From the sequence record MK327928.1: DNA of 64,000 bases; one strand, given 5' to 3'. Numbering within the stretch: the first letter of the stretch is position 1; the number at the start of each line of letters is the position of its first letter. Made by a program: the position numbers and the translations under genes. Below are positions 12,428-28,901 of the stretch, one piece after another. The notes under the pieces are model-generated. The model was not told the origin of the DNA and did no database searches. It was given only the letters and a program-made list of their open reading frames with translations. This DNA comes from Escherichia phage vB_EcoM_G2133.

Positions 12428-12517
12428 GTCCCATCTCCATATCAATTAAGTCATTTATCGTTGGTTCATTATATATTGTTTCTTCATCAGTGTAAACCGG
12501 TTCTTCCTGCTCTGGCT

Positions 12518-12721: not shown

Positions 12722-12723
12722 AT

Positions 12724-13199: not shown

Positions 13200-13200
13200 A

Positions 13201-13443
13201 TTATTCCTTAATTCCTAGTACTTGTTTAAAAGTCTCGTCGTAATCAAGACTTTGGCCCGTTTGTTCTTTATGTTTGTATATAATATCACTTACTTCTGAT
13301 AGCATATTTTTATATGAACGAGTTAAAGCTGATTTAAGCACGCTGTATCTATCAGGAAATTTACCATGTTCATTATAATAAGCTATTGCTAATTCACGGA
13401 CTGCCTTTTCAGCAGTCTCCATATATTCTTTACGCTTTGTCAT
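13201..13443 (-). CDS. Hypothetical small protein
   Basis: ORF trimmed to the ATG at 13443. Confidence 0.35.
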
Positions 13444-13744
13444 TTTCTTCTCGGTCAAATCGGTGTTTACAATGGCGACATTTATAACGAAGATTACTAG
13501 TCTGCCAATGGACCAATTGCACCTGTTCAGTTCCACATTCAGGGCAATTAGGAACGTTTTTAGAAGCACGTTCGCGGCGTTCAACCATGACCATTACAGA
13601 ATCCCAATTAATAGGGCTGCTATAATCATCACAACCATGAATCTTTCCACGCATTTCCAAATCGTCTTCTTCACCGGCCATAATAATTTTAATTAAACTG
13701 GAATTACTTGAAGCTGCAATGTCTTCTAATAGACGCTTTTTCAT
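13430..13744 (-). CDS. Hypothetical zinc-ribbon protein
   Basis: 104 aa with CPECG...CRHCKH paired-cysteine motifs. Confidence 0.45.
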
Positions 13745-14673
13745 TTCAATATCTCAATAGCATTACGTAAACCATTTGCTTTTGCATTAAGAGCTTTTAA
13801 CAATTTGGTGTGTTCTGCAATTTGGGCTTCAACTTCAATCAAACGAGCATTGAGATATTCGCGTTCTTCACTCAGATTATCAGCCTTTTCTGCTTTAGGT
13901 TCTTTTACAACTTGCTTATATGTATTAGGGTTCTTCAGTTTAATTAGAATGCGTGAACTGTACAGCATTGAACCATTATCTTCGGTTTCGTCATACATTT
14001 CCACTACGTCCATCATCTCCACCATCGTGCAGAGTTTATAAGACAACGAACGAATAATTTTGTTGTGCTTATTAATTTCTCTAGCTGTCATGGTGCCGAG
14101 ATTACGTGAGTAATAATAAGGAACCTGGATATTAATTAATACTGATGAACCACCTGGCTTGTGTGTTACTTCATCAGCAATAACCCAATCCTTAACATGA
14201 ACTGTATTTGTACGGTCATCTCCCGCGGTAAATAGTTTACGAGCATGCTTAAAAAGCATATTCACTTGGTCATTGAATTGACAAGCGAATTTATCAGCAA
14301 ATTTAGTTTCGGGAATGGTAGATAACCAATCAGCCAAATGGGTCTTTTTAACATCGTTAACAATAGTAAATTCAACCAAATCGGTTATAGATGTCTCAGA
14401 TTTAATGAAGCTCGGCTTCATAAAGTTTTTAATGTTATCACTAGCTACAGTAGAAGATAACAGACGAGAACGTTTAAACCATTGAAGCAAATTGCCTAAC
14501 GAATGAGAATAAGCGTTTTGAGTATCTTTACAGATATGATTTTCCTGGCCAACATATTGAAGGAAATCACGAAGAATATTATTATTGATTACTGCCCTGT
14601 GTCCTATCTGATAATTACGATGTTTAGTAATAAGACTGTCAAAATAATCAATATAATGTTTACGAGTTTTCAT
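13741..14673 (-). CDS. Hypothetical protein with C-terminal coiled coil (nrdC.x-type block)
   Basis: 310 aa; C-terminus [42 protein letters not shown] has heptad character. Confidence 0.55.
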   Translation of the reverse strand: MKTRKHYIDYFDSLITKHRNYQIGHRAVINNNILRDFLQYVGQENHICKDTQNAYSHSLGNLLQWFKRSRLLSSTVASDNIKNFMKPSFIKSETSITDLVEFTIVNDVKKTHLADWLSTIPETKFADKFACQFNDQVNMLFKHARKLFTAGDDRTNTVHVKDWVIADEVTHKPGGSSVLINIQVPYYYSRNLGTMTAREINKHNKIIRSLSYKLCTMVEMMDVVEMYDETEDNGSMLYSSRILIKLKNPNTYKQVVKEPKAEKADNLSEEREYLNARLIEVEAQIAEHTKLLKALNAKANGLRNAIEILK

Positions 14674-14725
14674 GTTCTTCTCACTTTGTTAATGATTTGT
14701 ACTCCGAGCCATCCTTGGCTTTAAA

Positions 14726-15727
14726 TTACTTAATTAACTGTAAAGCTTGTTCAAGACGATCAAGACGATTAACAGATTCTTCCCAAATCCTTTTAGCCTG
14801 CTCATATTCTTTCTGCGCTTTATTAGAAATTTCTAGAACTTCTTTATAAGCTTTTTCTAGTGCAATAACTTCTGGACGAATTTCTACCGATTCAGGTGAA
14901 TCATCAAGATTATCCATTAGTTCCTCAAGGGTAGTTTCTTCTTTAGGAGTATTCACAATTTCATCACATTTTTGCTGGTAAATTTCTTTATCAGTCGGTG
15001 AGTACGCACACTTTACTTCACGAAGACTAATTACAATTTTATATCCTTCCCAACCACCCATATTTTTGAAAGGATATGTATGAATACTTTTTACAGTTTC
15101 CATACAATCCAAAGCCGTCTCTAATTGATGAGTTATAGTGCTAGCAATTGAGAAAAATTTATTAATATTCTTTTGGTTAGCTTCTGGTGTAAAAAATTCG
15201 TAATTCACAAAAATAGCTACTTTATTTTTATCAAGCTCATATTCTTTTACGATAATCATATCAGAAGCCAAAGGATGAATTTGACGATAATCGCCATAAC
15301 ATAATTTAGAAGCTGATTTTAGAATTTGTCCTTTAAAAAGTCTGAAATTACTAATCCAACGACGAGTAAAAATATTCTTAGGGTCTTCTTTGATATTAAG
15401 ATGATAAGAATTAACATCACCGAACCAATTGTATCCTATTACACCTTTAGTTCGTTTAATTTCTTTCCCAAAATTACCAAGAATATCCCGATTAACTAAA
15501 TATGAAAGAAGACGAGACCCTTTAAAGATTATCTTAATATCATCTTTATCTACACGGCTAGAAATTTCACGAACTTCATGAATAAATTTACTGGAAGAAA
15601 CAATACTTGCATCAATACTACTGAGCCATTGATTGATAATAGAAAGAACAGCGTTCTGACTAGACATGGGTTTAACTTTATCATCAATAACGCTATTGAA
15701 TGATTTGATATATTCGTTACGAGTCAT
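14726..15727 (-). CDS. Hypothetical protein with C-terminal coiled coil
   Basis: Start set at the ATG at 15727 (GAGGAG Shine-Dalgarno); C-terminus KAQKEYEQAKRIWEESVNRLDRLEQALQLIK. Confidence 0.55.
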   Translation of the reverse strand: MTRNEYIKSFNSVIDDKVKPMSSQNAVLSIINQWLSSIDASIVSSSKFIHEVREISSRVDKDDIKIIFKGSRLLSYLVNRDILGNFGKEIKRTKGVIGYNWFGDVNSYHLNIKEDPKNIFTRRWISNFRLFKGQILKSASKLCYGDYRQIHPLASDMIIVKEYELDKNKVAIFVNYEFFTPEANQKNINKFFSIASTITHQLETALDCMETVKSIHTYPFKNMGGWEGYKIVISLREVKCAYSPTDKEIYQQKCDEIVNTPKEETTLEELMDNLDDSPESVEIRPEVIALEKAYKEVLEISNKAQKEYEQAKRIWEESVNRLDRLEQALQLIK

Positions 15728-15755
15728 ATTAATCTCCTCAGTAGAAAGTAAGAAC

Positions 15756-15785
15756 ATTATACCACATCCTTGTGGCAAAGTAAAC
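15756..15785 (-). promoter_or_regulatory. T4-type early promoter
   Basis: Minus strand reads GTTTAC, 18 nt, TATAAT; overlaps the stop of the upstream gene. Confidence 0.5.
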
Positions 15786-16807
15786 TAGTTCAGTGCATTT
15801 AGTGCATTGTTCAGTTTAGAACGTTGCTTTGTCAGATTTTGAACCCTTGACTGAGCTTGTTCTAACGCCTTTTCAGCTTCTAGCACTTCATTGGTCGCTT
15901 TAACGAGTTCATCATCTACTGCCTTAAGAGACTTCTCAATCGCGTCAGCGTGCCATTTTTCTACAGGTTTAAAATTTGAATTTTCAGTAGGAAGAAAACT
16001 CACTTTATTAAGTTTACATGCATCTTTATTACCTGAACTATACATCCAAAATTTAGGATCGTTTGATAAGTAATTAGATAAATTTAAGTTATCTTGCACT
16101 TCCTGCTTTTTCTCTTGTGTAACTTCGTCCTTTCTCAAAAAATCATATTTAAATGAAACGATCATATCAAGTTCATATGTTGTCGTATCTAATTTAAATC
16201 GTTCGAAATGCTGCGAAATCTTAGACTGAACAGCAGAAACAACATCCATATACTTAAATGCTTCTGTCAACTGTGATTTAAGGCATTCACAAATTGAAAG
16301 AGAATTTTTTGTATTAGGTTTAAAGCTAATTCGTGCAGTTCTATTATTTTCTTTTAATGGTCTTACTTCCATCTGAAGAGTATAACCATCAAATTTCAGG
16401 TTCTTTAAGTTAATATCAGAACCTTTTAATCGACTCGCAGTTGATAAAATTTGCTTTAATTGTCTACGGAACAGAGCAATAAATCTCCATTCAATACGAT
16501 AATGATTTGGATTGAAAAATCCAGATGATAAATCGACCTTACTTTGACCAACGCCTTGAACAAATAGAGGATTTTTATAATCAATAGTTTTACAGAAATC
16601 GGTGAGCTGCTCACGAGCAGTCATTTGTGTAATATACCCTGCTTCATTAAAATTACGCACCCATTCACTGCTGTTCAGATGTTTAAAGGCGTGAATGGAA
16701 CAATTAACTTTATTAAGGTCTAAATTATTTTCACACAAAAATGTCATAGCATCACGAGTATAGCTTGCATTACGAACCATATCTTCAATTTGAGAACGAG
16801 TTTTCAT
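15785..16807 (-). CDS. Hypothetical protein with C-terminal coiled coil
   Basis: 340 aa; C-terminus LEAEKALEQAQSRVQNLTKQRSKLNNALNALN. Confidence 0.55.
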   Translation of the reverse strand: MKTRSQIEDMVRNASYTRDAMTFLCENNLDLNKVNCSIHAFKHLNSSEWVRNFNEAGYITQMTAREQLTDFCKTIDYKNPLFVQGVGQSKVDLSSGFFNPNHYRIEWRFIALFRRQLKQILSTASRLKGSDINLKNLKFDGYTLQMEVRPLKENNRTARISFKPNTKNSLSICECLKSQLTEAFKYMDVVSAVQSKISQHFERFKLDTTTYELDMIVSFKYDFLRKDEVTQEKKQEVQDNLNLSNYLSNDPKFWMYSSGNKDACKLNKVSFLPTENSNFKPVEKWHADAIEKSLKAVDDELVKATNEVLEAEKALEQAQSRVQNLTKQRSKLNNALNALN

Positions 16808-16815
16808 AGTGTTCC

Positions 16816-17706
16816 TTAAGATTTAAGTAAATCAACAATTTTAATTAATTTTTCACGTTCAGATTTAGCTTTACTACTCAATCCAGATAGTCTAAAGATT
16901 TCATCGTCATATTGTTGAATAGAAATATTCAGCTCTTCAATCTGTTTATTAAAATAATCAATTTGTTCAGAATGTTTTTCATTACTACGAACTGATACAG
17001 GTTTTGTAGGCAATTTAGTTGAACTAGATTCATCCGGGCGATAAATTAAAATACAACTTGAACCAATTGGACATTTTGCACCAGATGAATATTCTAATGT
17101 TCCGGCTTCTTTTAAAACTTCAAAAGCTAAACAGAGATGATGCCCCATATTAACATAATCAGTAGAGCGAGCTCTGATGTAATAATCATCTCCGCGAATA
17201 CTAAATTTAAAGCATTTAAGGTCTTCTGTATTATTGGTCTTAAAAATCATTTGTTTATTTAGACCTTTAGCTAATCGAGCGCCTAATGCTAATAATCGTC
17301 GTTGATTTTCCCACAAATCTGCGATCATTTGGTCAAATGATAATTTCGGCATTAGTCGACCATAAAGGTCGTATCCTTTATTATAATTGCGAAGGATTTC
17401 ACTCGCGTTAATACGGGACAATGCTCCAATTTTATTAAGGGCTTTCATAATGCGATTAGATAAACTCATTCCAGACCCGTTTGTTCGCTGTAAATGTTTT
17501 TCTAATCCAAATCCAATATCAACTTTAAATTTATCTAAAATTTCAGCATGAACATCTCTGTCAATAACATTCAAATCCAGAGTTGGGTTAAATCTATGAA
17601 AAAATTTATCTGGCTCTCCACGACGAAGTACAGTCCATTCATTCATCATTTTTTTATTAACTAAAGATTTAATTACTGCATTGACATTATTAATTACGAC
17701 TGACAT
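16816..17706 (-). CDS. Hypothetical protein with C-terminal coiled coil
   Basis: Start at the ATG at 17706 (GAGGAAAA Shine-Dalgarno); C-terminus QIEELNISIQQYDDEIFRLSGLSSKAKSEREKLIKIVDLLKS. Confidence 0.55.
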   Translation of the reverse strand: MSVVINNVNAVIKSLVNKKMMNEWTVLRRGEPDKFFHRFNPTLDLNVIDRDVHAEILDKFKVDIGFGLEKHLQRTNGSGMSLSNRIMKALNKIGALSRINASEILRNYNKGYDLYGRLMPKLSFDQMIADLWENQRRLLALGARLAKGLNKQMIFKTNNTEDLKCFKFSIRGDDYYIRARSTDYVNMGHHLCLAFEVLKEAGTLEYSSGAKCPIGSSCILIYRPDESSSTKLPTKPVSVRSNEKHSEQIDYFNKQIEELNISIQQYDDEIFRLSGLSSKAKSEREKLIKIVDLLKS

Positions 17707-17713
17707 ATTTTCC

Positions 17714-18121
17714 TCACTCAATTTCAATTTTACTAAATATACAGAATAAGATGGAACAGACTATATAAGCACCACACACAGATTGAACTAATACCATTCC
17801 AAAGAACCAAACAATATTATCAAACAATGTCTGTTTTACGTCGAAAGGACGTAAACTTACAGTAATATTATCGCCTTTTTCTATTGATGAATACATCTCT
17901 GGTGAAATATATTCGCTAAATCTATAACCGTCTTTGAGTTCATATACAGCAATAAACGATAAACTAGACCCCTTTCCTTGAGTTCCTGTAAGGGTATTAA
18001 CTACAGTAACATCATAATCTTTATAATGCATATAATCATTAATTGCGTAATAACCATATGCAATTGCTATACATAAACAACATATCAATAAATTCAATCT
18101 TTTAATTATCAACTGTTTCAT
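17714..18121 (-). CDS. Membrane protein (N- and C-terminal transmembrane helices)
   Basis: 135 aa; hydrophobic N-terminal segment LLICCLCIAIAYGYYAI and C-terminal segment FFGMVLVQSVCGAYIVCSILFCIF. Confidence 0.5.
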   Translation of the reverse strand: MKQLIIKRLNLLICCLCIAIAYGYYAINDYMHYKDYDVTVVNTLTGTQGKGSSLSFIAVYELKDGYRFSEYISPEMYSSIEKGDNITVSLRPFDVKQTLFDNIVWFFGMVLVQSVCGAYIVCSILFCIFSKIEIE

Positions 18122-18176
18122 AATAATCTCAATTAAAAGGGCTTAGAACCATTATACCATCCTTGGTATAAAGCGG

Positions 18177-18704
18177 TTATGCGAGTACCGTCTTTAACCG
18201 TTCTTCAAACTTCCGAAGAGTATTCTGGCGTTCAGCTCTTTGCTTTTTGTAAGTTTCAATACGCTCTGAAATGAGAGTGTATCGTTCATTTACTGATTCT
18301 TTCATAAAATCAGGAATTTCACGAGAAGCTTTAATCTCGTCAAATTTATCAATAACAGCTTGCTCTTCAGCAATTAAGTTATCATACATCAAAATATCTT
18401 TCTTGATGAACTCAATATCTTCTTGAGTTACACGAGATAATTTAGATGCTTTATCCTTTTTGTACTGTTCGTTAGTATCACGAGACCAGTGTAATGTACG
18501 ATTTTTATTCGTATTCTTGTAAATTTCTACAATACCAATCTCATCGATAATAACGATCCAATTCCAACGGGATTTGTAAATTTGTCCTCCATCAACAGTG
18601 ATTTCACCTCCAATTGAGATGTCATTAAAGAACTTGCTTTGTGCTTCAGATTTAAATTTACCATCGTTGTAATTTACCAGGTTGAAAATATCTTTAGCGT
18701 TCAT
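18177..18704 (-). CDS. Hypothetical protein
   Basis: 175 aa from the ATG at 18704 (GGAGGAA Shine-Dalgarno), directly downstream of an early promoter. Confidence 0.5.
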   Translation of the reverse strand: MNAKDIFNLVNYNDGKFKSEAQSKFFNDISIGGEITVDGGQIYKSRWNWIVIIDEIGIVEIYKNTNKNRTLHWSRDTNEQYKKDKASKLSRVTQEDIEFIKKDILMYDNLIAEEQAVIDKFDEIKASREIPDFMKESVNERYTLISERIETYKKQRAERQNTLRKFEERLKTVLA

Positions 18705-18732
18705 TTTGTGTTCCTCCGTAGTTGATAGTTGT

Positions 18733-18762
18733 ATAGTACCACAGAGGAACAGTCTTGTAAAC
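18733..18762 (-). promoter_or_regulatory. T4-type early promoter
   Basis: GTTTAC, 18 nt, TACTAT on the minus strand, followed by the conserved CAACTATCAACTAC box. Confidence 0.55.
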
Positions 18763-18764
18763 AA

Positions 18765-19067
18765 CTAAAAGAAACTTCTTTCACAATTTTTTCCACTGAA
18801 CCAAGCGCTCACTGCTTTCTTAGTCTCAGGAGCAGTGTTATCCATAAACCATTCAAAGGCAGCCTTTTTATGATTCTGGAGGGCTTCTCGGGCTTTAATC
18901 TGCTCACGGTCTATTAACACTAACATATGAGCCTTTCTTGTCACCAGGGGCTTCTTATGATTTTTTGAATACTCCCAATCATTTGTCCATCGCATCGTTG
19001 TTGCGAACTGAAATACTGCTTCTTTAATTTTAGTTTCGTAAATTTCACGAGCCTTTGAGTATAACAT
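18765..19067 (-). CDS. Hypothetical protein
   Basis: ORF with the likely start at the ATG at 19067 (GGAGG Shine-Dalgarno). Confidence 0.4.
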   Translation of the reverse strand: MLYSKAREIYETKIKEAVFQFATTMRWTNDWEYSKNHKKPLVTRKAHMLVLIDREQIKAREALQNHKKAAFEWFMDNTAPETKKAVSAWFSGKNCERSFF

Positions 19068-19168
19068 CACTACCTCCATTTACCAGTTTAATTCTAATCA
19101 TCTTTTTGATGGCAGTCCATATAATCTATTTCTGAACTGCCTTTTTGTCATAGAAGGCCTCTTATGAA

Positions 19169-20137
19169 TTATTTCAGAAGAGTAACCTCAGCAATTTCTT
19201 CCCAACCGTTTTTGTCGGTCATAATAAAGTCAGCAAGATAAAGTGCAGTACGCAGTGAAACATTGCGTAAACGGTTAACATTGACTTTCATCCATGATAA
19301 TGCTTTATAAGTTTCTTCATCAGAAAGACCGCGCTTTTGCATCATGTCGGTTGAAAGAATAACATCTTCAACCCTGACCATAATTTCTTCATTAGTGTGA
19401 ACACCCAAATCTAAATAAACTGAGCGGGACACTAATGCTTGTAAATGTGGAGCAAGTTTAGTACCACGGTCTAATTCGCGGTCAATATCAACGTTTGTGA
19501 TAAAAACAATCGTTCCTTTAAATTCAAACTCACGCTCAATGCCTTTTTCTTCTAAGTAAGAAGATGCAGTGCTCCAGCAGACTTTACGGGTCTCTCCAGT
19601 GTCCAGAGCAGCTTTCAGAAGATTAAGAATGTCCATATCAGAGAAAACATCCACATCATCAATCAAAAGGACAGAATTCTCTTCACGATTATTCCAGAGC
19701 TGTTCATAAAGACCGATACCAGAGATTTTACCGTTAATGCTTTTATATTCAATGTATCCAATATCATTTGCTTTATTTAAAGCTTTATCTAAAGAATACG
19801 TTTTACCAATACCTGCTGCTCCCGAGATAATTAATGAACGAATGTTTCCGTTAATAATACCATTCGTCATCATTCCCATAACATTAAATCTTTTATTAAT
19901 GCGGGTTTTCATATCTTCATATGATTCTTTAACTTCTTCAACTTTTACACCATCATATGAAATGTCTGATTTGTAAACCCAAACACCGCGACGTTTACCG
20001 TCAATTTCAACAAAAACTTTACCATCTCCTTGTGCATCTACTGGAGCATTATCTGGGAACCATTCGCCTAAGAGCTCAAAAGTTCCAGAGATTTCTTTAC
20101 CGAAGTAGATACCCTTATTGATAGTTACAGTTTTCAT
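19169..20137 (-). CDS. P-loop NTPase (Walker A and B), function unknown
   Basis: Start at the ATG at 20137 (track start is TTG); Walker A SGAAGIGKT and Walker B LLIDDVD. Confidence 0.6.
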   Translation of the reverse strand: MKTVTINKGIYFGKEISGTFELLGEWFPDNAPVDAQGDGKVFVEIDGKRRGVWVYKSDISYDGVKVEEVKESYEDMKTRINKRFNVMGMMTNGIINGNIRSLIISGAAGIGKTYSLDKALNKANDIGYIEYKSINGKISGIGLYEQLWNNREENSVLLIDDVDVFSDMDILNLLKAALDTGETRKVCWSTASSYLEEKGIEREFEFKGTIVFITNVDIDRELDRGTKLAPHLQALVSRSVYLDLGVHTNEEIMVRVEDVILSTDMMQKRGLSDEETYKALSWMKVNVNRLRNVSLRTALYLADFIMTDKNGWEEIAEVTLLK

Positions 20138-20174
20138 TTTATTCTCCAAATCTGTATCAGTAGTTGATAGTTGT

Positions 20175-20204
20175 ATAGTACCATAAAGCTTTATGCTTGT
20201 AAAC
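20175..20204 (-). promoter_or_regulatory. T4-type early promoter
   Basis: GTTTAC, 18 nt, TACTAT; conserved CAACTATCAACTAC box downstream; A/T-rich upstream element. Confidence 0.55.
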
Positions 20205-20230
20205 CGTTTTGTGAAAAAATTTTTGAAATA

Positions 20231-20254
20231 AAAAAGGGGACCTCTAAGGCCCCT
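20231..20254 (-). terminator. Intrinsic terminator
   Basis: GGGG(a)CC-tctaa-GGCCCC hairpin followed by U5 on the minus-strand RNA; lies just 3' of ORF 20263..20748. Confidence 0.5.
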
Positions 20255-20262
20255 TTATGCTT

Positions 20263-20748
20263 TTATTCCATTTCTATTATATGCATGTTCTTTTTGCTAT
20301 CAAAATATATGTTTTTAACTGTTAACTCCGAATTAATTGGCAATAAAAACTCTCTTTCATAATCTACCATACAAAGGTTATCATAAAGCTTGTTAAGCTT
20401 ATCATCGTCAGTTTGGCCAGATTCTTCAATTGCGATTAAATTTTCTAAAATGTCAATCATAGCAGTCGAATAGTCAAAAACGTTTGCATTTTTTAACACT
20501 ACTAAAACATTAGTCATATAGCGTTCTGCAGCAAACGTTTCAGCTATATGAGACTCACTGCTAAAGGAAGTTATTCTTTTAAATTTGATTCTCCTATTAA
20601 CTTCAAACTTATAAGATAGCACTTCCTCTATTGTAAGTCCTCTAAAAAGTGTGTCTTTAATCTCAAGTTTGTCTTTAATGTAATCATTAACACGCTTATG
20701 ATTAAAATTATTAATTTTGTTGCCAAGGCATTGCATTAAAATATGCAT
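20263..20748 (-). CDS. Hypothetical protein
   Basis: 161-aa ORF with ATG start and GAGGAG Shine-Dalgarno, flanked by its own promoter and terminator. Confidence 0.5.
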   Translation of the reverse strand: MHILMQCLGNKINNFNHKRVNDYIKDKLEIKDTLFRGLTIEEVLSYKFEVNRRIKFKRITSFSSESHIAETFAAERYMTNVLVVLKNANVFDYSTAMIDILENLIAIEESGQTDDDKLNKLYDNLCMVDYEREFLLPINSELTVKNIYFDSKKNMHIIEME

Positions 20749-20794
20749 TGTATTCTCCTCAATTTTTAAAGAGCAATTAATTAACTACACGTAT

Positions 20795-20824
20795 ATTATA
20801 ATATGCTTTGCGGCAGAAGTAAAC
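20795..20824 (-). promoter_or_regulatory. T4-type early promoter
   Basis: GTTTAC, 18 nt, TATAAT on the minus strand. Confidence 0.55.
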
Positions 20825-20850
20825 AACTTTGTGACGTCATTTTAAACAAA

Positions 20851-20871
20851 AAAAGGAGCCCGAAGGCTCCC
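20851..20871 (-). terminator. Intrinsic terminator
   Basis: GGAGCC-uucg-GGCUCC hairpin followed by U7 on the minus-strand RNA. Confidence 0.6.
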
Positions 20872-20873
20872 TA

Positions 20874-21884
20874 TCATTTATAATAACTTCGATGGTTTTC
20901 AAGATAGACTTTCTCAAGGAAGTCATCCCAAAAACCCATGTCCACTTTTTGCTGCATACCGTTCTTAGAAGCTTCAGTAGATGCTGCTTCTACTTGATCG
21001 ACCACATCTTCCAAAAACTCTTGAACGGTTTTAAATGGATGTTTACCCAACTTCACGTCGAGAATAAATGGAGCGTCTTGAAGTGGATAAACCAAGTCGC
21101 CAGTTTTGTAAATTTCCAATAGTTGAAGTCCACCACGACAGGCATGGCTCAGAGCTTTCCAGTCAATACCTTCATTGGCTTCGGCCTTACGAGCACGTTC
21201 ACCATATTCAGCATCTAATTTGTTCAGTGACTGCTTAAGCTCAATAAGAGAAAGAGTTGTCTGATATTTACGACCCAACACTGTGTAAAACGTTTGTGGG
21301 CCTGTTTTCTCATGATTATGGAACACCCATTCACAGAATTCGTTTTCTGGAAGACGATGCTTAATATCTTCAACTTTAGTACGACGCTGCTTAATGGAAC
21401 CGTCTTCTTGGTAATCAACCCATTGCTCAGGGATTTGATTAACTACTTTCAATACATCACGTAATGCAGCCAAACGAGAACCCTTGACACCGTATTTAGA
21501 AGCTTGCTTGCGGACATATCCTAAATAGGATTTCATGTTAGTCGTATAAAAACGAGAACGGTTGTCTTGAATAAACTTCCATACATCAGGCAAATCGGAT
21601 TTAACCACTAGTTCAGGTGGAGTGTGAAGCATATCCAACGCTACAGTTTCACCATCTGCCGCTAATTTAAAGAAATATTTAAGACTGTATAGTTCATGGT
21701 CAATATCATCTTTAGTGTTTTTAGATGATGTGTTGTTAGTGTTTTTACTCATGTGCTCTTTGACATTTCCGATAAGAATATCACGAGCAGGAGGAACAAA
21801 AATTTCTTTAAAATCTACATCAGATTCTGGGGTAGAAGTTCCATAAAGATGACTACCAAAATAAGACTTAACTACAGTTTTCAT
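20874..21884 (-). CDS. Nucleotidyltransferase-fold protein (Pol-beta-type GS...DxD motif), function unknown
   Basis: Motif FGSHLYGTSTPESDVDF (G-S, ten residues, DxD); start is uncertain (ATGs at 21884, 21899, 21908) and overlaps the 3' end of the HNH gene. Confidence 0.55.
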   Translation of the reverse strand: MKTVVKSYFGSHLYGTSTPESDVDFKEIFVPPARDILIGNVKEHMSKNTNNTSSKNTKDDIDHELYSLKYFFKLAADGETVALDMLHTPPELVVKSDLPDVWKFIQDNRSRFYTTNMKSYLGYVRKQASKYGVKGSRLAALRDVLKVVNQIPEQWVDYQEDGSIKQRRTKVEDIKHRLPENEFCEWVFHNHEKTGPQTFYTVLGRKYQTTLSLIELKQSLNKLDAEYGERARKAEANEGIDWKALSHACRGGLQLLEIYKTGDLVYPLQDAPFILDVKLGKHPFKTVQEFLEDVVDQVEAASTEASKNGMQQKVDMGFWDDFLEKVYLENHRSYYK

Positions 21885-22647
21885 TATTAGACCTTTCATA
21901 ATCTTCATTAAATTGTACAATCAATCGATGATAATTAGATTTTGGATATCCTAATTTACTTATATAAGTTCCGAATGACCCACGTTTAGGTCTATTTAAT
22001 TTAATCCATAACTTATAAAGTAAGTCATAGTCTTGCCAATGTTTACCAGTTCTTTGTCTAATTTTAGATGAATTTGATTGTTTCTTTTTAGTTTCAAAAT
22101 TATTCAAAGATTTTTTGACTGCAGCAGAGTGTTTTTCTTTAACTCCCGGTCGTTTAAAAGCAGCTTTCACCCCTTTAGATATTTTTTCTTTAACTTCCGG
22201 TTTGTTTTGTGCTTCTAACTGGGATTCTGAAATTTTAGCCCTTATTTCAGGAAGACTTAATGTTATCGAACGTTTTTCTCTGTATTCATTAGACTTCCAC
22301 ATTTCTTTCATTGTATTAGAATGTATTTTTGAAAATTTTTCTCTAACTAACTGATATCCTCTTGAAGTTAATTTGAGATTTCTTCCTAAAGAATCTTCTC
22401 CAAAATTATAAAATGACCACCATGCATAAATTAATCCAGGCGAATTATAATGAATTTTAGCTAAAAGCCAATGGGCTATAAAATGCTCTCTAGCTGTTAA
22501 TAAAACTAGATTATCAGAATCATCATTACCACCAATACAAGATGGAATAATATGATGCTTTTCCGTATAAAAATTTAATTTAGATTTATCTAATTTTCTG
22601 AGTTTTCCTTTCTTAATTAAATTATTATATACTTTAGTATAATTCAT
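21868..22647 (-). CDS. HNH homing endonuclease (Mob family; mobD-like by position)
   Basis: 259 aa; HHIIPSCIGGNDDSDNLVLLTAREHFIAHWLL HNH motif and lysine-rich C-terminal repeat motifs. Confidence 0.7.
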   Translation of the reverse strand: MNYTKVYNNLIKKGKLRKLDKSKLNFYTEKHHIIPSCIGGNDDSDNLVLLTAREHFIAHWLLAKIHYNSPGLIYAWWSFYNFGEDSLGRNLKLTSRGYQLVREKFSKIHSNTMKEMWKSNEYREKRSITLSLPEIRAKISESQLEAQNKPEVKEKISKGVKAAFKRPGVKEKHSAAVKKSLNNFETKKKQSNSSKIRQRTGKHWQDYDLLYKLWIKLNRPKRGSFGTYISKLGYPKSNYHRLIVQFNEDYERSNNENCS

Positions 22648-22721
22648 TGGTTCTTCGTCTCATTTAATTTTGCTTTGCATTTATAACACATGTCTGTTCC
22701 ACTTGAAATAAACATATTTCC

Positions 22722-23255
22722 TCACTTCGAAATCATAGTTGGAATGACAGAATCAAGATAAGTCTTTAGCGCAATAGCTTCGTCTTTGGTAAATGTGACA
22801 ATATGTGATCGAAAATCGTCAATTTGGCGAATAGTTAAGACATCTCCCTCTTCATAACATTTTGATACATTTAAAAGAGTTTCATCATTCTGATTGCAAG
22901 CGTTAGTAATAATAGCATTGCAATTTTTGAGCCATTTTAAACTATGTTTTCTTTCATTAGAATAATAAAAATATTTAATCTTAGCTATAAAACTATCCCA
23001 ATGGATAACTGATAAACACATTGACTCACTTTTAATATTAAATCCTGGGCATGAAGAATAAAAATGAATTTTGTGCTCATCATTGATGCTTACAATTTTA
23101 TCAGTATAAGGATATTCAATTTGGGTTAAATGAATAATTTCACTAGATGTAAAATACAGCATATCGTCTTCTTGCGTCAAACGATACATATTATTTACTT
23201 TTTCTATAGCCAATTCACCAAAAAGTGGACTAACTTCTAATACTAATCGTTTCAT
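22722..23255 (-). CDS. Hypothetical protein
   Basis: 177-aa ORF with ATG start. Confidence 0.45.
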   Translation of the reverse strand: MKRLVLEVSPLFGELAIEKVNNMYRLTQEDDMLYFTSSEIIHLTQIEYPYTDKIVSINDEHKIHFYSSCPGFNIKSESMCLSVIHWDSFIAKIKYFYYSNERKHSLKWLKNCNAIITNACNQNDETLLNVSKCYEEGDVLTIRQIDDFRSHIVTFTKDEAIALKTYLDSVIPTMISK

Positions 23256-23256
23256 A

Positions 23257-23523
23257 TTAATCCTTTTTATTTGCGCTGATTTGTTCTAAAATTTTAGAGT
23301 ATTCCTTTGTATCAGATTTACGTACAATCGATACGCTATACGGCATACTATCGGTGTCTTTTATAAAGCGTTCCAAATGACACTCTAATAAAATTTCTGG
23401 ATTATAAATCGTGTACATCAAATTACCTGTTGCTCCACGATATTGACAGATTTCTACTGATTGAACATCATTCCATAATTTTGTTAAGACCAAATCACCT
23501 ACTTCTAATTTAGGAAAGCCCAT
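23257..23523 (-). CDS. Hypothetical protein
   Basis: ORF trimmed to the ATG at 23523. Confidence 0.4.
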   Translation of the reverse strand: MGFPKLEVGDLVLTKLWNDVQSVEICQYRGATGNLMYTIYNPEILLECHLERFIKDTDSMPYSVSIVRKSDTKEYSKILEQISANKKD

Positions 23524-23524
23524 G

Positions 23525-23710
23525 TTATTCACCAATTAAAGTTTCAATATAAGAATCAAGATTTACTTTAGCTTCTTCCATAAGAGTTTTGTATTTAATC
23601 TTGTTGGCATGTCCGGAGAAAGCTGATTCATCAATAATTGTTGATGTATGAACAGCTTTACTATACGTCTCAATTAATTCTCTTAATTTAAAAGCCTGCT
23701 CACTTGTCAT
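23525..23710 (-). CDS. Hypothetical small protein
   Basis: 61-aa ORF; its ATG overlaps the stop of an upstream mini-ORF (TAATG). Confidence 0.4.
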   Translation of the reverse strand: MTSEQAFKLRELIETYSKAVHTSTIIDESAFSGHANKIKYKTLMEEAKVNLDSYIETLIGE

Positions 23711-23808
23711 TACATACTCCTTTGAATAATATCAATAATGTTGTTCACTAGATTATAAGTAAACATTGGGTAATTATATTGAATCATCACATACACAACA
23801 AACAAAAC
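23710..23808 (-). CDS. Possible 33-aa hydrophobic peptide (not in the ORF track)
   Basis: ATG at 23808 preceded by AAGGAGAAGAGA; translation MKVLFVVYVMIQYNYPMFTYNLVNNIIDIIQRSM; lies between an early promoter and the next gene. Confidence 0.3.
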   Translation of the reverse strand, partial: VLFVVYVMIQYNYPMFTYNLVNNIIDIIQRSM

Positions 23809-23842
23809 TTTCATTCTCTTCTCCTTGACAGTTGACAAGATT

Positions 23843-23872
23843 ACTATACCATAACCTTGCCAACTTGTAAAC
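23843..23872 (-). promoter_or_regulatory. T4-type early promoter
   Basis: GTTTAC, 18 nt, TATAGT on the minus strand. Confidence 0.5.
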
Positions 23873-24037
23873 CGTTAAATGTTGTTTTCAATAAAATTTT
23901 GAAGCTTTGTGTGAGCATCAACCATGATTTTCATTTCTTCTTTGGCGAAAGCTGTGCCTCTTTCACGAGAAGAACATTCATAGTCAGAAACTGCATTAGC
24001 ATATTCTTCAATTAGTTTCATTAAAAACATCTGCTTT

Positions 24038-24232
24038 TCAGTTTTCATTATTCCACCTAATCATTTCAAGATATTGAACTAACTTAGCTTTGGATTTATC
24101 CAAATCCTTTTTAGCTGCTTCTATACCGTCGTATGAATATCCTTCACAATGCTCAACTGCTAATTGATATGAATCTATTTCAATATCACGTGCTAATTTA
24201 ATGATTTTTTCAAACTGTTCGCGTGTTAGCAT
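24038..24232 (-). CDS. Hypothetical small protein
   Basis: 64-aa ORF with ATG start. Confidence 0.4.
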   Translation of the reverse strand: MLTREQFEKIIKLARDIEIDSYQLAVEHCEGYSYDGIEAAKKDLDKSKAKLVQYLEMIRWNNEN

Positions 24233-24234
24233 AA

Positions 24235-24438
24235 TTAAACTCTCGTATTATGATCGATAATTTCATCAAGAAACATATCTAACGCTTCTAAAGCATTATC
24301 AACTTTAGCTTCAAGTTCATCAGCACCTTTATTTGCAATGCCTGACGAAAACCAAGCAAAGTCACTAAGTTCCTCGTCTGCCTTGCGAATTGAAGCCACT
24401 AATTCCTTGATTTTATCCGCTTGCTCTACACTAATCAT
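24235..24438 (-). CDS. Hypothetical small acidic protein
   Basis: Start at the ATG at 24438, overlapping the upstream stop (TAATG). Confidence 0.4.
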   Translation of the reverse strand: MISVEQADKIKELVASIRKADEELSDFAWFSSGIANKGADELEAKVDNALEALDMFLDEIIDHNTRV

Positions 24439-24626
24439 TATTCCACCACATATGAAAGAGAGAATATTGCACACGCCATGTGAGTTGCAACTTCATCACA
24501 CATATTATAACGTTTCTTAAGAAGTTCTACAAGTTTTTCACTGGTAACTTCATCCATGTTGACGAAAAAATCACCATTAATGATGACGTAGATATTTCCT
24601 TCTTGATTAAGTGCTTCAATTTTCAT
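24438..24626 (-). CDS. Hypothetical small protein
   Basis: Start at the ATG at 24626 with GAGGAG Shine-Dalgarno, just downstream of an early promoter. Confidence 0.4.
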
Positions 24627-24654
24627 GATGTTCTCCTCTTTATCCGATGGTTGT

Positions 24655-24684
24655 ATAGTACCACGGCTCAAACGAAAAGTAAAC
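24655..24684 (-). promoter_or_regulatory. T4-type early promoter
   Basis: TTTAC, 18 nt, TACTAT on the minus strand. Confidence 0.5.
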
Positions 24685-24694
24685 AGGTAAAATG

Positions 24695-24716
24695 AAAAAA
24701 GTCTCCCGAAGGAGAC
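24695..24716 (-). terminator. Intrinsic terminator
   Basis: GUCUCC-uucg-GGAGAC hairpin followed by U6 on the minus-strand RNA. Confidence 0.6.
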
Positions 24717-24721
24717 TAATG

Positions 24722-25108
24722 TTATTCGAGGGAAAGAAGATATTTACTCTGGTAAAACATTCCAGTAATATCATCTATAGTGCTTTGGATGGCTGGAGGC
24801 ATTTCTTTATAAATGCTGTTAGATTGGTCTAATATGCGATCAATCATTTTAATTGTGTCGGTAGGAAGTTTACTGGCATCTGGAATTGAAGGTGTGTATT
24901 TTCTACCAGAATACCCCAAATACTGCTCACCAAATTTGTCAATCAAATCTGGTAACTCGGAGAAAATAAAATCGTATGCTTTATGTCTAGCATAACTTTT
25001 AGTTTCAAAATGTGCAGAATGAAAATAAGCTTGTGCAGCCATTAATAAACCTAAGTATTCATCTGCCTTTGAAGGTTTTCCACTTTGTGAAAAGTCGCTG
25101 AATTTCAT
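24722..25108 (-). CDS. Hypothetical protein (rI.1 position)
   Basis: 128 aa; ATG overlaps the rI stop (ATGA). Confidence 0.45.
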
Positions 25109-25398
25109 TCAGTCTCCAATTTAATGTTCATAATTCTAGCGTATGATTGTGCCATCTCCGCGCCTCGTTCTATACATTCAAAATCAGAAGAGCACGGGTC
25201 ATTTTTATAGGTCGTTCTCATAAAACTATAGAATTGTTCAGACGATTCTACGCTTTTATTTTCAAAAAGCATATAAACATGTCTAATACCAGATTCCATA
25301 AATTTATCAAAATGAGGATCGACATTCGCTTCAATTGGTGGAGATAAAGCAAATGACAATCCTAGCATGGCAAATAGTGCCGTTGCTTTTAAGGCCAT
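25105..25398 (-). CDS. rI: Lysis-inhibition regulator RI
   Basis: 97 aa with an N-terminal signal-anchor; MALKATALFAMLGLSF...NVDPHFDKFMESGIRHVYMLF matches T4 RI. Confidence 0.8.
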   Translation of the reverse strand: MALKATALFAMLGLSFALSPPIEANVDPHFDKFMESGIRHVYMLFENKSVESSEQFYSFMRTTYKNDPCSSDFECIERGAEMAQSYARIMNIKLETE

Positions 25399-25410
25399 AA
25401 AGGCCTCCTA

Positions 25411-25623
25411 TCATTTTTGTCCTGTATTTACTTTATGCCGGTGCACGGCCTTAACTTTATCAAGGTATTTTTCAAAATTTCGCAATCTAGTATAGTCTGC
25501 CGGAGATTGGTTGAGTGATACTTCTCGACGCAAAGCTGAAATGATATTTCCAACTTCCCTACGAATTTCATCTAATTGAAGCACAGTAAGATTGCGAAGT
25601 TGCTTTTCAGTTAATTGTAGCAT
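25411..25623 (-). CDS. Hypothetical small protein (rI.-1 position)
   Basis: 70-aa ORF with ATG start. Confidence 0.4.
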
Positions 25624-25665
25624 ATATACCCCTTTAGTTAGATAAACCTATTTATAACTTTTGCA

Positions 25666-26247
25666 CTAACCGAGCTTTTTAGTTAATTCATTCCAATGTT
25701 TTCTACACAAAGAAACATAAATTTCATCACCAATACAGATTTGATTACCTTCTTTAACTGGTGTTCCATCTTCCATTAATCGAGCTGTCATAATCGCTTT
25801 TTTGCCGCAATGACAAACTGCCTTTAGTTCAATAAGTTTATCTGCAATCGCCAAAAGTTCTTTAGAACCTTCAAACAATTTTCCAGCGAAATCAGTCCTT
25901 AGACCATAAGCCATAACAGGAACATTATATGTATCAACAATTCGACTTAATTGATGCACCTGTTCAGTTTTTAAAAACTGAGCTTCATCTACAAATACGC
26001 AATGAATATCTTTTTGTGCTTCAGCCCATTTATAGAACTCAAAAATATCCATATCATCTGTAATAATATTCGCTTCCTGTTTAATTCCAATGCGAGAAAC
26101 GACTTCGCAGACAGAATCGCGAGTATCAATAGCAGGCTTAAGAACTAATACACTCATTCCACGCTCTTTATAATTATGCGCAGCAGTCAAAAGAGAAGCA
26201 GATTTTCCAGCATTCATTGCTGCATAAGTAAAAATTAAACTCGCCAT
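25666..26247 (-). CDS. tk: Thymidine kinase
   Basis: 193 aa; P-loop NAGKS and Zn-ribbon cysteines (CHCGKK...CRKH); matches T4 Tk. Confidence 0.9.
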   Translation of the reverse strand: MASLIFTYAAMNAGKSASLLTAAHNYKERGMSVLVLKPAIDTRDSVCEVVSRIGIKQEANIITDDMDIFEFYKWAEAQKDIHCVFVDEAQFLKTEQVHQLSRIVDTYNVPVMAYGLRTDFAGKLFEGSKELLAIADKLIELKAVCHCGKKAIMTARLMEDGTPVKEGNQICIGDEIYVSLCRKHWNELTKKLG

Positions 26248-26256
26248 ATCACCTTC

Positions 26257-26442
26257 TTAAAGCGTATTCACATAAGCTATTAATTCGTTTTCTTTCTTAT
26301 CAAACCGATCAGCAAATTCTTCCTGCTGTTCGGGAGATAACGGGCCGTATTCATCATAAAAGGTGTTTGCTTCTGTATGCTCATCTAGAAGTTCATGGAT
26401 AAGCTCAAACAATTTATCTTTTTGTTCTTTTCTTAGACTCAC
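26257..26442 (-). CDS. Hypothetical small acidic protein
   Basis: 61-aa ORF; apparent GTG start. Confidence 0.35.
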   Translation of the reverse strand: MSLRKEQKDKLFELIHELLDEHTEANTFYDEYGPLSPEQQEEFADRFDKKENELIAYVNTL

Positions 26443-26611
26443 AGTATGTCAATCCCCAAAAGTTTTAAAATGACTCGTTTCTGATTCATAACCGCTACGA
26501 TTGAATGACCGTTAGGGTCTTTTTGACCCGATCCAATTATAAATCCTTTTTGTGCAGAAAGTTCAATCAAAACATCAAGTTCACGTAATAATTGATATTT
26601 TAAATCATCAT

Positions 26612-26824
26612 TCATTTTGGTTTGCCTTCTTTAACGAAATCAGGATAAGGATAAAATCCCGAATAAAATCCTTCACCTTTATGATTGATGCATCCTTTAT
26701 TAGAACAATAGCACCAATAATCGAAATCACAAGCCATTTCATCATTACATAAAGCAAAAACAACAGGCCATTTACACTTTTCACAATGGGCATTTTTAAG
26801 AATACTAGTTTGGCTCATAACCAT
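26612..26824 (-). CDS. Hypothetical Cys-rich small protein
   Basis: Start at the ATG at 26824; cysteine pairs CEKC...CNDEMAC...CYC...GC. Confidence 0.4.
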   Translation of the reverse strand: MVMSQTSILKNAHCEKCKWPVVFALCNDEMACDFDYWCYCSNKGCINHKGEGFYSGFYPYPDFVKEGKPK

Positions 26825-27027
26825 GTAACCTTTAAGCAATATTCTTCTACGTGCTGTTTACGACCTTTCTTATCAATAAAGGTATATTCAACGAATGTTC
26901 CAATGTAGTCTTTATCTACATCATGTGGACTATTAATTGGACATTTAGTACGGCAAATGCGTTCCCATTGACGGATAATTACTGCCTTATTCTTTGGGTC
27001 ATACGGATGTGGATAATGTATATTCAT
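26815..27027 (-). CDS. Hypothetical small protein
   Basis: Start at the ATG at 27027, overlapping the macro-domain gene stop (ATGA). Confidence 0.4.
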   Translation of the reverse strand: MNIHYPHPYDPKNKAVIIRQWERICRTKCPINSPHDVDKDYIGTFVEYTFIDKKGRKQHVEEYCLKVTWL

Positions 27028-27491
27028 AATAATGGTTCCCAATCAACAATCACAATTTCTAATTTAGAAGAATATGTATCTAAAATCCCCTCAATAATAT
27101 CCCAGTTCCCTTTACCTATGCCTGCACCAATCCTAGGCATATAGATTGTAGGTTTAATCAGTTTATTTTCACCAAACTCATTTAATTCTAACATACAATT
27201 CATTAAAGCGGAATACTCAAAATTTGGCCCTGGTTGAAATTGAGTATAAAGGTTGAAGCAATACGCTTTATGAGTCCTAAAGTATTTTTCATAGACTGAG
27301 TAAGAACCGAGTTTAGTTACATCACCCCATTCAGTCTGTAATTTATCAGCTTCCAAAATTTTAGGGAAAGCTTTGGTTAATTGACCTGCGACTCCAGCTT
27401 TCATCGTGTGAAAACAATTACATCCATGCGCAATATTTTTACCTTCAGCGAAAAGGGCGACAATATCGCCCTTAATATATTTTACAATCAT
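27024..27491 (-). CDS. Macro-domain (ADP-ribose binding/processing) protein
   Basis: 155 aa; N-terminal GDIVALFAEGKNIAHGCNCFHTMKAGVAGQ and glycine-rich IGAGIGKGNWD resemble macro-domain signature regions. Confidence 0.55.
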   Translation of the reverse strand: MIVKYIKGDIVALFAEGKNIAHGCNCFHTMKAGVAGQLTKAFPKILEADKLQTEWGDVTKLGSYSVYEKYFRTHKAYCFNLYTQFQPGPNFEYSALMNCMLELNEFGENKLIKPTIYMPRIGAGIGKGNWDIIEGILDTYSSKLEIVIVDWEPLL

Positions 27492-27835
27492 CTAGTACTC
27501 AATCCTCGATTATAAGAATCTACCAAACGGTCAACCATTGAATGACAAGCGGCTTTATCTTTCTCCTCCGCAACTGAGCATTCTAAGGTATTCCACTTTT
27601 TAGCATATCGTTTTAACAATGTATCGTTTTTGTATCTGCTTGATTTATCTCTTTCTCCGTCTTTATATGCATATATTAATTTCTGCGCAAATTCAGCTTG
27701 GCATGCTTTATTTTTCCCACAATAATCTGCCGCAGTGCGGTTTACATATTCTCTAATTTCAGTATATGATGTATCTGCTGACGCAGAAGCAGAAAATGAA
27801 ATTAATCCTATACATAAAACCAAAATTTTAGTCAT
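27488..27835 (-). CDS. vs: Vs (valyl-tRNA synthetase modifier), secreted/periplasmic-type
   Basis: 115 aa with an N-terminal signal peptide; size and position match T4 vs. Confidence 0.6.
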   Translation of the reverse strand: MTKILVLCIGLISFSASASADTSYTEIREYVNRTAADYCGKNKACQAEFAQKLIYAYKDGERDKSSRYKNDTLLKRYAKKWNTLECSVAEEKDKAACHSMVDRLVDSYNRGLSTR

Positions 27836-28373
27836 TTACTATTTCCAAAAGTTTATTATTTTTAAGGTAGTTAGCCTTTTCTAGGACTTCAGAAGCATAT
27901 TTAGAACCTGCTTTAACATTCCATCCCGAATTATAAGAGGATATTGCTTTTCTTATATCACCCTTATGTATATTTAACCAATAAGAAAGTTCAATGTACG
28001 CCCAGGAAGCTGAATTGGATCGTTTATTCAACATTCTTTTTATTTCAGCATCGGTCATATTATAACCAAGTTCCTTAACTCTCGCTCGCATAGTAGGCAA
28101 ATAATTTTGGAACATTCCGTAGGCGTGATGCTTTGGTTTAGATTTTAAATTAACTCCGCCAGAGCTTTCTTGCCATAAAATAGCAGCCATTATATGACCT
28201 AATCCGCTCTTGTGGATATTTTTGTGTGTTTTATATTTTCCATCCTTAGAAAATTGTTCCCCGAATTGATACGCGTAACGCATGTTATCGAGTTGGACAT
28301 TACTGAAAGTATGCTCGGAGCTATGTGCCATCATTGAAATGGCCAATAGACCAGCGAGTAGTGCTTTTCTCAT
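27828..28373 (-). CDS. Lytic transglycosylase-like protein (vs.1 position) with signal peptide
   Basis: 181 aa; signal peptide MRKALLAGLLAISMMAHS; AAILWQESSG resembles the catalytic E-S motif of lytic transglycosylases. Confidence 0.55.
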   Translation of the reverse strand: MRKALLAGLLAISMMAHSSEHTFSNVQLDNMRYAYQFGEQFSKDGKYKTHKNIHKSGLGHIMAAILWQESSGGVNLKSKPKHHAYGMFQNYLPTMRARVKELGYNMTDAEIKRMLNKRSNSASWAYIELSYWLNIHKGDIRKAISSYNSGWNVKAGSKYASEVLEKANYLKNNKLLEIVND

Positions 28374-28380
28374 GCTTACC

Positions 28381-28842: not shown

Positions 28843-28869
28843 GTTATTCTCCTCTTAACTGATAGAAAA

Positions 28870-28899: not shown

Positions 28900-28901
28900 A
28901 G

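Follow-up and report, generated by a model that had tools for sequence, protein, structure and literature searches.

What do three neighbouring early genes of a T-even phage encode, and do their products act together? The question is raised by positions 19169 to 21884 of a 64,000-nucleotide stretch of Escherichia phage vB_EcoM_G2133 (sequence record MK327928.1), the whole of which is referred to here as the window. A preliminary description of this DNA had placed a P-loop ATPase gene and a Pol-beta-type nucleotidyltransferase gene in an uncharacterised block, and had proposed that they belong to a host-takeover or counter-defence module. The three open reading frames (ORFs) that it listed are all present on the minus strand, and gene names were assigned by comparison with annotated T2, T4 and RB3. 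These are nrdC.10 (19169..20137), encoding an AAA+ ATPase of 322 amino acids (aa); a gene at 20263..20748, referred to as the middle ORF, encoding a 161-aa Mod-family (PF26816 Mod_ADP_RT) ADP-ribosyltransferase orthologous to T2_097; and nrdC.11 (20874..21884), encoding a 336-aa RlaP-family (PF10127) Pol-beta nucleotidyltransferase. Our analysis favours, as a fairly probable reading, three functionally independent early genes, namely an RlaP nucleotidyltransferase, a mobile ADP-ribosyltransferase cassette and an AAA+ ATPase. Both domain calls of the preliminary description, P-loop ATPase and Pol-beta-fold nucleotidyltransferase, were correct. The two named genes had been annotated and treated in the literature before: the AAA assignment of nrdC.10 and the nucleotidyltransferase assignment of nrdC.11 were published for T4 in 2006 (PMC1524935), and T4 NrdC.11 has been named as a member of the RlaP family (PMC12776372). 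The new elements are the identification of the overlooked middle ORF as a mobile Mod-type ADP-ribosyltransferase, and the RNA-repair neighbourhoods (RtcB, Pnkp/Hen1 operons) of full-length NrdC.11-type cellular relatives; current views are not overturned by these findings.

The family assignment of NrdC.11 was examined by profile search, alignment and structure prediction. Against the Pfam RlaP profile (PF10127), NrdC.11 scored 43.9 bits (cut-off 23), with residues 7-134 aligned to profile positions 24-142 of 249, and the full-length cellular homologue of locus L093 also cleared the threshold, at 55.1 bits. The nucleotidyltransferase active-site motif FGSHLYGTSTPESDVDF (G-S-x10-D-x-D) is located at 21810..21860 on the minus strand (residues 9-25) and includes G10, S11, D22 and D24. 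Six residues, G10, S11, S21, D22, D24 and D62, were unchanged across 50 sequences (34-56% identity to NrdC.11). The last of these, D62, lies in DDIDHEL (21690-21710, minus strand) and is likely to serve as the third catalytic carboxylate, a role suggested by this alignment. NrdC.11 carries the Pol-beta signature hG[GS]-x9-13-DxD and a further invariant Asp, as set for RlaP. In the AlphaFold model (pLDDT 93.8), an N-terminal minimal nucleotidyltransferase domain is followed by a long helix, a variable beta insert (approximately residues 154-208) and a C-terminal helical bundle, the C-terminal domain being HEPN/KNTase-like. The GS...DxD motif lies on a confidently modelled Pol-beta-type nucleotidyltransferase fold, so that the structural outcome named in the preliminary description as a refutation did not occur. 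Relatives of NrdC.11 comprised 3407 clusters at 50% identity (E <= 0.001), and the best 150 listed were mostly full-length. No close solved structure for NrdC.11 was found in the PDB copies searched, in which neither single-sequence nor profile searches gave a meaningful match, and an NCBIfam scan of the proteins encoded at this locus returned nothing beyond sub-threshold Hda and MntA matches.

The characterised members of this family act on RNA. According to a preprint of December 2025 (PMC12776372), PfRlaP and PaRlaP of Pseudomonas attach one or two nucleoside monophosphates to RNA 3'-OH ends, with an optimum in the presence of Mn2+ or Co2+; they favour the 5' half of cleaved tRNA and modify neither DNA nor protein. 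In the crystal structure of PfRlaP, an N-terminal nucleotidyltransferase domain and a C-terminal helical domain form a cleft (PMC12776372). The RlaP proteins of P. fluorescens and P. aeruginosa have the GS...DxD...D set in common with NrdC.11, and the model of NrdC.11 suggests a similar pairing of a nucleotidyltransferase N-domain with a helical C-domain. RlaP has been predicted to put back nucleotides excised by nucleases such as RloC, ahead of ligation (PMC7824862).

With each prokaryotic species represented by one genome, a scan identified 80 loci with full-length NrdC.11-type proteins (33-54% identity); the neighbours of these cellular loci were clustered, and the representatives were scanned against Pfam. 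RtcB, Hen1 with bacterial Pnkp, Ro60 or T4-type PNKP was encoded within 5 kb in 17 of the 80 loci, and an RNA-repair neighbour was present in 11 of the 48 loci having at least 3 kb on both sides. These neighbours mostly lie on the same strand as the NrdC.11-type gene, and several of the gaps measure only -3 to 18 nucleotides (nt). A Ro60 (TROVE/vWA) homologue adjoins the NrdC.11-type gene in four cellular loci (L051, L092, L028 and L067), two of which (L051 and L092) also contain RtcB, an arrangement that resembles rsr-Y RNA-rtcBA operons. In Sinorhizobium phage phiM19 (L009; 645-1709, 4995-6020 and 10515 onward), the NrdC.11 homologue is flanked by a gene annotated as '2'-5' RNA ligase' and another annotated as 'RNA ligase', and a MutT/Nudix gene follows immediately downstream; this is a phage-borne RNA-repair neighbourhood. 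The cellular and phiM19 neighbourhoods together indicate that the association with RNA repair extends beyond the Pseudomonas branch and holds for the NrdC.11 branch too.

NrdC.11 is most likely an enzyme that extends RNA 3'-OH ends by untemplated nucleotides. The protein would act as a template-independent nucleotidyltransferase of the RlaP family, expressed early along with mobD, and its substrate would probably be the 5' half of a tRNA that has been cut by a host anticodon nuclease and has lost one nucleotide. It is plausible that NrdC.11 refills such tRNA halves before they are resealed by the phage Pnkp and RNA ligase (Rnl1), which are encoded elsewhere in T-even genomes. RNA repair was discovered in T4, in which Pnkp and Rnl1 reverse the damage inflicted by the PrrC anticodon nuclease; this system was reportedly described by Amitsur et al. 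in 1987. NrdC.11 would be the obvious candidate in T-even phages for the nucleotide-restoring step against excising (RloC-type) nucleases. Its 3'-OH product would fit the 5'-phosphate ligase of the phage, sidestepping the RtcB compatibility problem raised in PMC12776372. Because the RlaP family is associated with RNA repair, the counter-defence direction suggested in the preliminary description is reasonable for nrdC.11, although its extension to a joint module is unsupported, as discussed below. In T4, nrdC.1 of the nrdC block is reported to inhibit the Septu defence system, and tk.4 to encode an anti-DarTG2 macrodomain (preprint, November 2025, 10.1101/2025.11.20.689424), indicating that this hyperplastic region does contain anti-defence genes; both genes are taken from the literature on T4.

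A number of observations weigh against the assignment of this role to NrdC.11. The RlaP profile match is confined to the N-terminal nucleotidyltransferase half (residues 7-134), NrdC.11 falls into similarity-network cluster 5 and the characterised Pseudomonas RlaPs into cluster 1a (PMC12776372), and NrdC.11 has an extra variable beta insert of approximately 55 residues compared with Pseudomonas RlaP. These differences suggest that the substrate of NrdC.11 could differ from those of the characterised RlaPs. A recognised RNA-repair neighbour was absent from 63 of the 80 cellular loci; no ligase or Pnkp gene is annotated flanking nrdC.11 in T2, T4 or RB3, and none is found nearby in this window. 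T4 tolerates an nrdC.11-mobD.3 deletion on laboratory hosts (PMC9825161), and the searched text of the HIDEN-SEQ preprint names nrdC.1 among the hits, and neither nrdC.10 nor nrdC.11. The main text of the CRISPRi-ART paper contains no mention of nrdC.10, nrdC.11 or the middle ORF.

The middle ORF had been recognised in the preliminary description as an early-promoter cassette with a terminator, but was left unnamed, its identity as a Mod-family ADP-ribosyltransferase having been missed. It matched phrog_832, the PHROG of RNA polymerase ADP-ribosylases (6e-24), and BLASTP detected T4 ModB (30% identity, E 6e-15) and ModA (27% identity, E 6e-10) over approximately 145 residues. Precomputed PF26816 Mod_ADP_RT assignments are present on its homologues, and its orthologue T2_097 is annotated as 'RNA polymerase ADP-ribosylase' in RefSeq; searches of NCBIfam and of a local copy of Pfam-A were negative. 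The R-S-ExE motif is intact, with R36-G37 in LFRG, S61 in SFSS and E131-x-E133 in EREF. R36, S61, E131 and E133 do not vary within the clade, where all four members keep them down to 51% identity, and they are the same in ModA/ModB. R36-G37 aligns with R73-G74 of ModB, and the ExE element with E171-x-E173; R73 of ModB is required for catalysis (PMC10468400). With 161 aa compared with 200-207 for ModA/ModB, the protein has no counterpart of the first ~38 ModA/ModB residues, and its gene occupies another locus than modA/modB, between nrdC.11 and nrdC.10, where it is sporadic and horizontally mobile. Judged from its sequence, the protein is a short variant or paralogue within the Mod family. It would be a small third Mod-type NAD+-dependent ADP-ribosyltransferase, and, when Alt is counted, the fourth such enzyme of the phages in which it occurs. 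Some T-even phages, T2 included, hold one ADP-ribosyltransferase gene beyond the textbook three.

The gene is rare, being present in 43 phage records at a level of at least 90% identity; the protein is 98% identical to that of phage 215Ecol030PP. T2 carries the orthologue, and T4 and RB3 are without it. A search of 5.8 billion proteins, the yield of which is limited by its word prefilter, gave three clusters. Conceivably, the mobile ADP-ribosyltransferase aims at a target other than those of ModA/ModB and counteracts defence in a strain-specific manner. A Mokosh type I screen includes Alt and a ModA orthologue, and knockout of Alt was shown to have a phenotype (10.1101/2025.11.20.689424). The possibility that the small enzyme substitutes for a broken modB was rejected, given that 215Ecol030PP and N2 keep intact modA and modB alongside it and that Citrobacter phage Moon has a full ModB-like gene. 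In favour of that possibility, modB of T2 (RefSeq NC_054931.1, L014 2152-2773) differs from that of T4 (L003 3508-4131) by a 2-bp deletion at T4 nt 405-406, and the resulting frameshift gives ORFs of 142 and 42 aa, the main product losing the ExE element; this is either a pseudogene of that isolate or a sequencing error.

We then analysed the transcription signals around the three genes, which are identified here as sequence matches. Over the whole window, the T4 early-promoter motif GTTTAC-N16-18-TAnnnT was found at 19 sites on the minus strand and one on the plus strand, compared with 2.1 in shuffled sequences. The early promoter of the ADP-ribosyltransferase cassette is located at 20824-20795 (GTTTACT-N17-TATAAT, minus strand), and that of nrdC.10 at 20204-20175 (GTTTACA-N17-TACTAT with an extended -10 TG, minus strand). 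Both match the PST/T4 consensus TTTACW-N17-TAYWAT (PMC4122927) of the early promoter/stem-loop (PeSL) units, and the nrdC.10 promoter differs very little from the one promoter that T4 has between nrdC.11 and nrdC.10. The two terminators that had been placed near 20851-20871 and 20231-20254 were confirmed on the minus strand, each with a trailing U-run. The intrinsic terminator after nrdC.11, which forms the stem-loop of PeSL 1, lies at 20872-20853 and consists of an 8-bp stem with five GC pairs followed by UUUUUUUG (folding energy -15.6 kcal/mol, z -3.6). The intrinsic terminator after the ADP-ribosyltransferase gene, which forms the stem-loop of PeSL 2, lies at 20253-20237 and consists of a 7-bp stem with five GC pairs followed by CUUUUUUAUU (folding energy -12.9 kcal/mol). 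A strong ribosome-binding site, GAGGAG, precedes the middle ORF.

For the two outer genes the signals are incomplete. No early-promoter motif of its own was found for nrdC.11 in the motif scan of the window. Its ATG (21884) overlaps by 17 nt the end of mobD, the stop codon of which is at 21868-21870, and the nearest upstream early-promoter motif lies approximately 2 kb away, at 23872-23843 on the minus strand; this motif is likely to start a transcription unit composed of mobD.1, mobD and nrdC.11. Downstream of nrdC.10, no terminator was found, a hairpin without a U-run being all that occurs there. Since nrdC.11 lacks its own promoter and nrdC.10 lacks a terminator, the full promoter-ORF-terminator cassette that the preliminary description had assigned to every gene is complete for the middle ORF only.

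The middle ORF is bracketed by two terminator-plus-early-promoter (PeSL) units. In T4, the interval from nrdC.11 to nrdC.10 contains just one terminator-promoter unit, a hybrid, and here two related units surround the gene; approximately 53 bp of the T4 hybrid unit aligns to both copies in the window. PeSL cassettes are known from the hyperplastic regions of T4-like phages (PMC2839356, PMC4122927). The features in common are the stem-loop terminator, an AT-rich stretch, the TTTACW-N17-TAYWAT promoter and the Shine-Dalgarno sequence, together with the arrangement itself, in which two copies flank a variable ORF in a hyperplastic region and the relative T4 has one copy and no ORF. Compared with known PeSL cassettes, nothing essential is different, and the present case is a new example in which the cargo has a recognisable enzymatic function. 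The cassette (about 20827-20269) showed 93-96% DNA identity to Citrobacter phage Moon, compared with mostly 50-80% for the flanking nrdC.11 and nrdC.10, and the synonymous divergence (dS) from Moon was 0.16 for the cassette and 1.73 for the flanks. This confinement of high identity to the cassette indicates a recent horizontal transfer with Moon. The cassette is probably gained and lost through recombination between the flanking PeSL repeats. In metagenomic T4-like contigs (L010 5001-5546, L011 2946-3491), a relative of the middle ORF (62% identity in the best local alignment) was observed with regA on one side and the DNA polymerase gene (gp43) on the other, a locus different from that in T2, Moon and this window.

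The product of the third gene, nrdC.10, is a conserved AAA+ ATPase that begins with a beta domain. Walker A (GAAGIGKT, residues 106-113, 19799-19822) and the DD-type Walker B (LLIDDVD, residues 157-163, 19649-19669), both already noted in the preliminary description and both on the minus strand, occupy invariant columns of a 30-homologue alignment. N215 (19493-19504, minus strand) is a candidate sensor-1 residue, and R238 (19421-19432, minus strand) a candidate arginine finger. The model (pLDDT 89.8) shows an N-terminal beta domain (residues 1-62), an AAA+ core and a helical lid, so that Walker A, Walker B, the candidate sensor 1 and the conserved arginines are found on an alpha/beta core with a lid, as is characteristic of AAA+ proteins. 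The family, phrog_1250, comprises 1311 phage records, and its members in Aeromonas and Vibrio phages still show 55-60% identity; in these searches, nearly all members came from T4-like phages and from some jumbo phages. Compared with the MoxR (NorQ/CbbQ), DnaA/ORC, NtrC and clamp-loader clades, the AAA+ core is common to all, whereas the N-terminal beta domain is NrdC.10's own. A single-sequence PDB search with NrdC.10 gave nothing meaningful.

Explanations other than those given above were considered for each protein. NrdC.11 might not repair RNA ends, and might instead synthesise short oligonucleotides in the manner of HalB or a nucleotide signal, or adenylylate a protein or a small molecule. 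Hailong HalB (PDB 9dbh, 9dbj) was indeed its closest structural match, and the HalB catalytic pair D21/D23 (mutant entry 9dbi) has nearly the same residue numbers as D22/D24 of NrdC.11; in addition, the RlaP profile leaves the C-terminal half of NrdC.11 uncovered. However, the structural scores were modest, with 15% identity and Foldseek E >= 3.6e-3, a level that any minimal nucleotidyltransferase would be expected to reach, and only approximately 150 of the 336 residues align. NrdC.11 has no HalA partner, and its gene neighbourhood is another one, full-length homologues being located in RtcB and Pnkp/Hen1 operons and not near HalA-like channels. The PADLOC defence-system models gave zero matches for all three proteins at E <= 1, and a family relationship with CBASS-type nucleotidyltransferases was thus not detected. 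Finally, the characterised RlaPs modify RNA only (PMC12776372). Taken together, these observations make a product other than an extended RNA end unlikely for NrdC.11. A more specific version, in which a HalB-like NrdC.11 would make an oligonucleotide decoy that keeps a host oligonucleotide-gated guard silent, appears extremely improbable. The extension of RNA 3' ends by an RlaP-family enzyme is the preferred reading for this gene. With respect to the middle ORF, the loss of the first ~38 ModA/ModB residues, its presence in a minority of phages and the silence of the local Pfam-A copy and NCBIfam could point to decay, the ORF being an inactive remnant of a duplicated modB. Against this, the catalytic R, S and ExE residues are kept throughout the clade, the gene is under purifying selection (dN/dS 0.17-0.20), it possesses a consensus early promoter, a ribosome-binding site and a terminator of its own, and the intact unit has recently moved between genera. 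Decay is hardly tenable in view of these features, and a functional small ADP-ribosyltransferase is preferred. NrdC.10 could be linked to replication, as an AAA+ protein resembling DnaA/Hda or clamp loaders, with replication proteins of the host or the phage as its targets and no tie to RNA. Its DD-type Walker B is presumably of the type found in DnaA/Hda, and weak matches to Hda (E 0.017) and clamp-loader PHROGs (E ~1e-4) agree with this proposal, but all sequence matches lie far below the family cut-offs, and no relative is assigned to the N-terminal beta domain. A replication-linked role is therefore doubtful and at best a lead.

The remaining alternative is that of the preliminary description, namely that the ATPase, the middle ORF and the nucleotidyltransferase form a single module for host takeover or counter-defence and jointly act on one target. 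The three genes adjoin in Tevenvirinae and are all early, and the order of nrdC.11 and nrdC.10 is kept in Moonvirus (Moon) and, with small ORFs in between, in Acinetobacter phage PhaR5. Such adjacency is weak evidence for a module because T4-like genomes are broadly collinear. The three genes belong to separate transcription units, and the middle gene, which is absent from T4 and RB3 and located elsewhere in another phage, is dispensable and mobile. The pairing of the two outer genes is not conserved either: in RB43, Aeromonas phage AsFcp_4, Klebsiella phage phiKp_32 and phiM19, no nrdC.10 occurs at a distance of up to 5 kb from nrdC.11, and in Vibrio phage D481 none occurs up to 6 kb away; the 80 cellular nrdC.11 homologues all lack nrdC.10 as a neighbour. 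The record counts also diverge, with 286 for nrdC.11 and 149 for nrdC.10 in Klebsiella phages, and 59 and 121, respectively, in Vibrio phages. We consider a joint module very unlikely on these grounds. To test for a coupling of the ATPase with the nucleotidyltransferase, gene order was compared in eight phages from different genera and in the 80 cellular loci; no conserved pairing was detected outside Tevenvirinae/Twarogvirinae, and the coupling was rejected. The extension of the synteny to PhaR5 nevertheless counts against complete independence, and a loose functional link between nrdC.10 and nrdC.11 may exist. Three independent early genes remain the favoured reading.

The window belongs to a Tequatrovirus (T2/T4/RB3-like), with its genes on the minus strand. 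A megablast search with 19000-22000 returned 793 phage records, nearly all of them T-even relatives, at approximately 96-97% identity. No phage record was found at an identity of at least 99%, either for 19000-22000 or for 12000-30000, suggesting that this phage combines known T-even segments in a new mosaic. The same mosaicism is observed at the protein level: nrdC.11 (98.8% identical to T4) and mobD are 100% identical to those of RB3, and nrdC.10 is 100% identical to that of T2. Upstream of nrdC.11, mobD (21868..22647, minus strand) encodes an HNH homing endonuclease that is present in T4 and RB3 and absent from T2. Many GenBank records refer to nrdC.10 or nrdC.11 as 'thioredoxin', apparently by way of the neighbouring gene name nrdC. 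Similar name-driven misannotations are the label 'molybdopterin-guanine dinucleotide biosynthesis protein MobD' carried by mobD.4 and the tag 'HNH homing endonuclease' on one nrdC.11 orthologue.

On the other side of the locus, nrdC.9 (18765..19067, minus strand) encodes a DUF7203 protein (Pfam DUF7203, 2.2e-15), its start at 19067 being deduced from the 303-nt nrdC.9 annotations of T2 and T4. The absence of a U-run terminator after nrdC.10 suggests that transcription probably reads into nrdC.9 and that the two genes are co-transcribed; the next promoter motif after that of nrdC.10 is at 18762-18733. The hairpin between nrdC.10 and nrdC.9 (about 19103-19142, minus strand) has a 9-bp stem, GGCAGUUCA...UGGACUGCC, and a 13-nt loop. 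The 84-nt region between the two genes folds better than all 200 of 200 shuffled sequences (z -2.7), and the hairpin could be an RNA processing or stability element. At most sites of the early-promoter motif in the window, TG directly precedes the -10 element.

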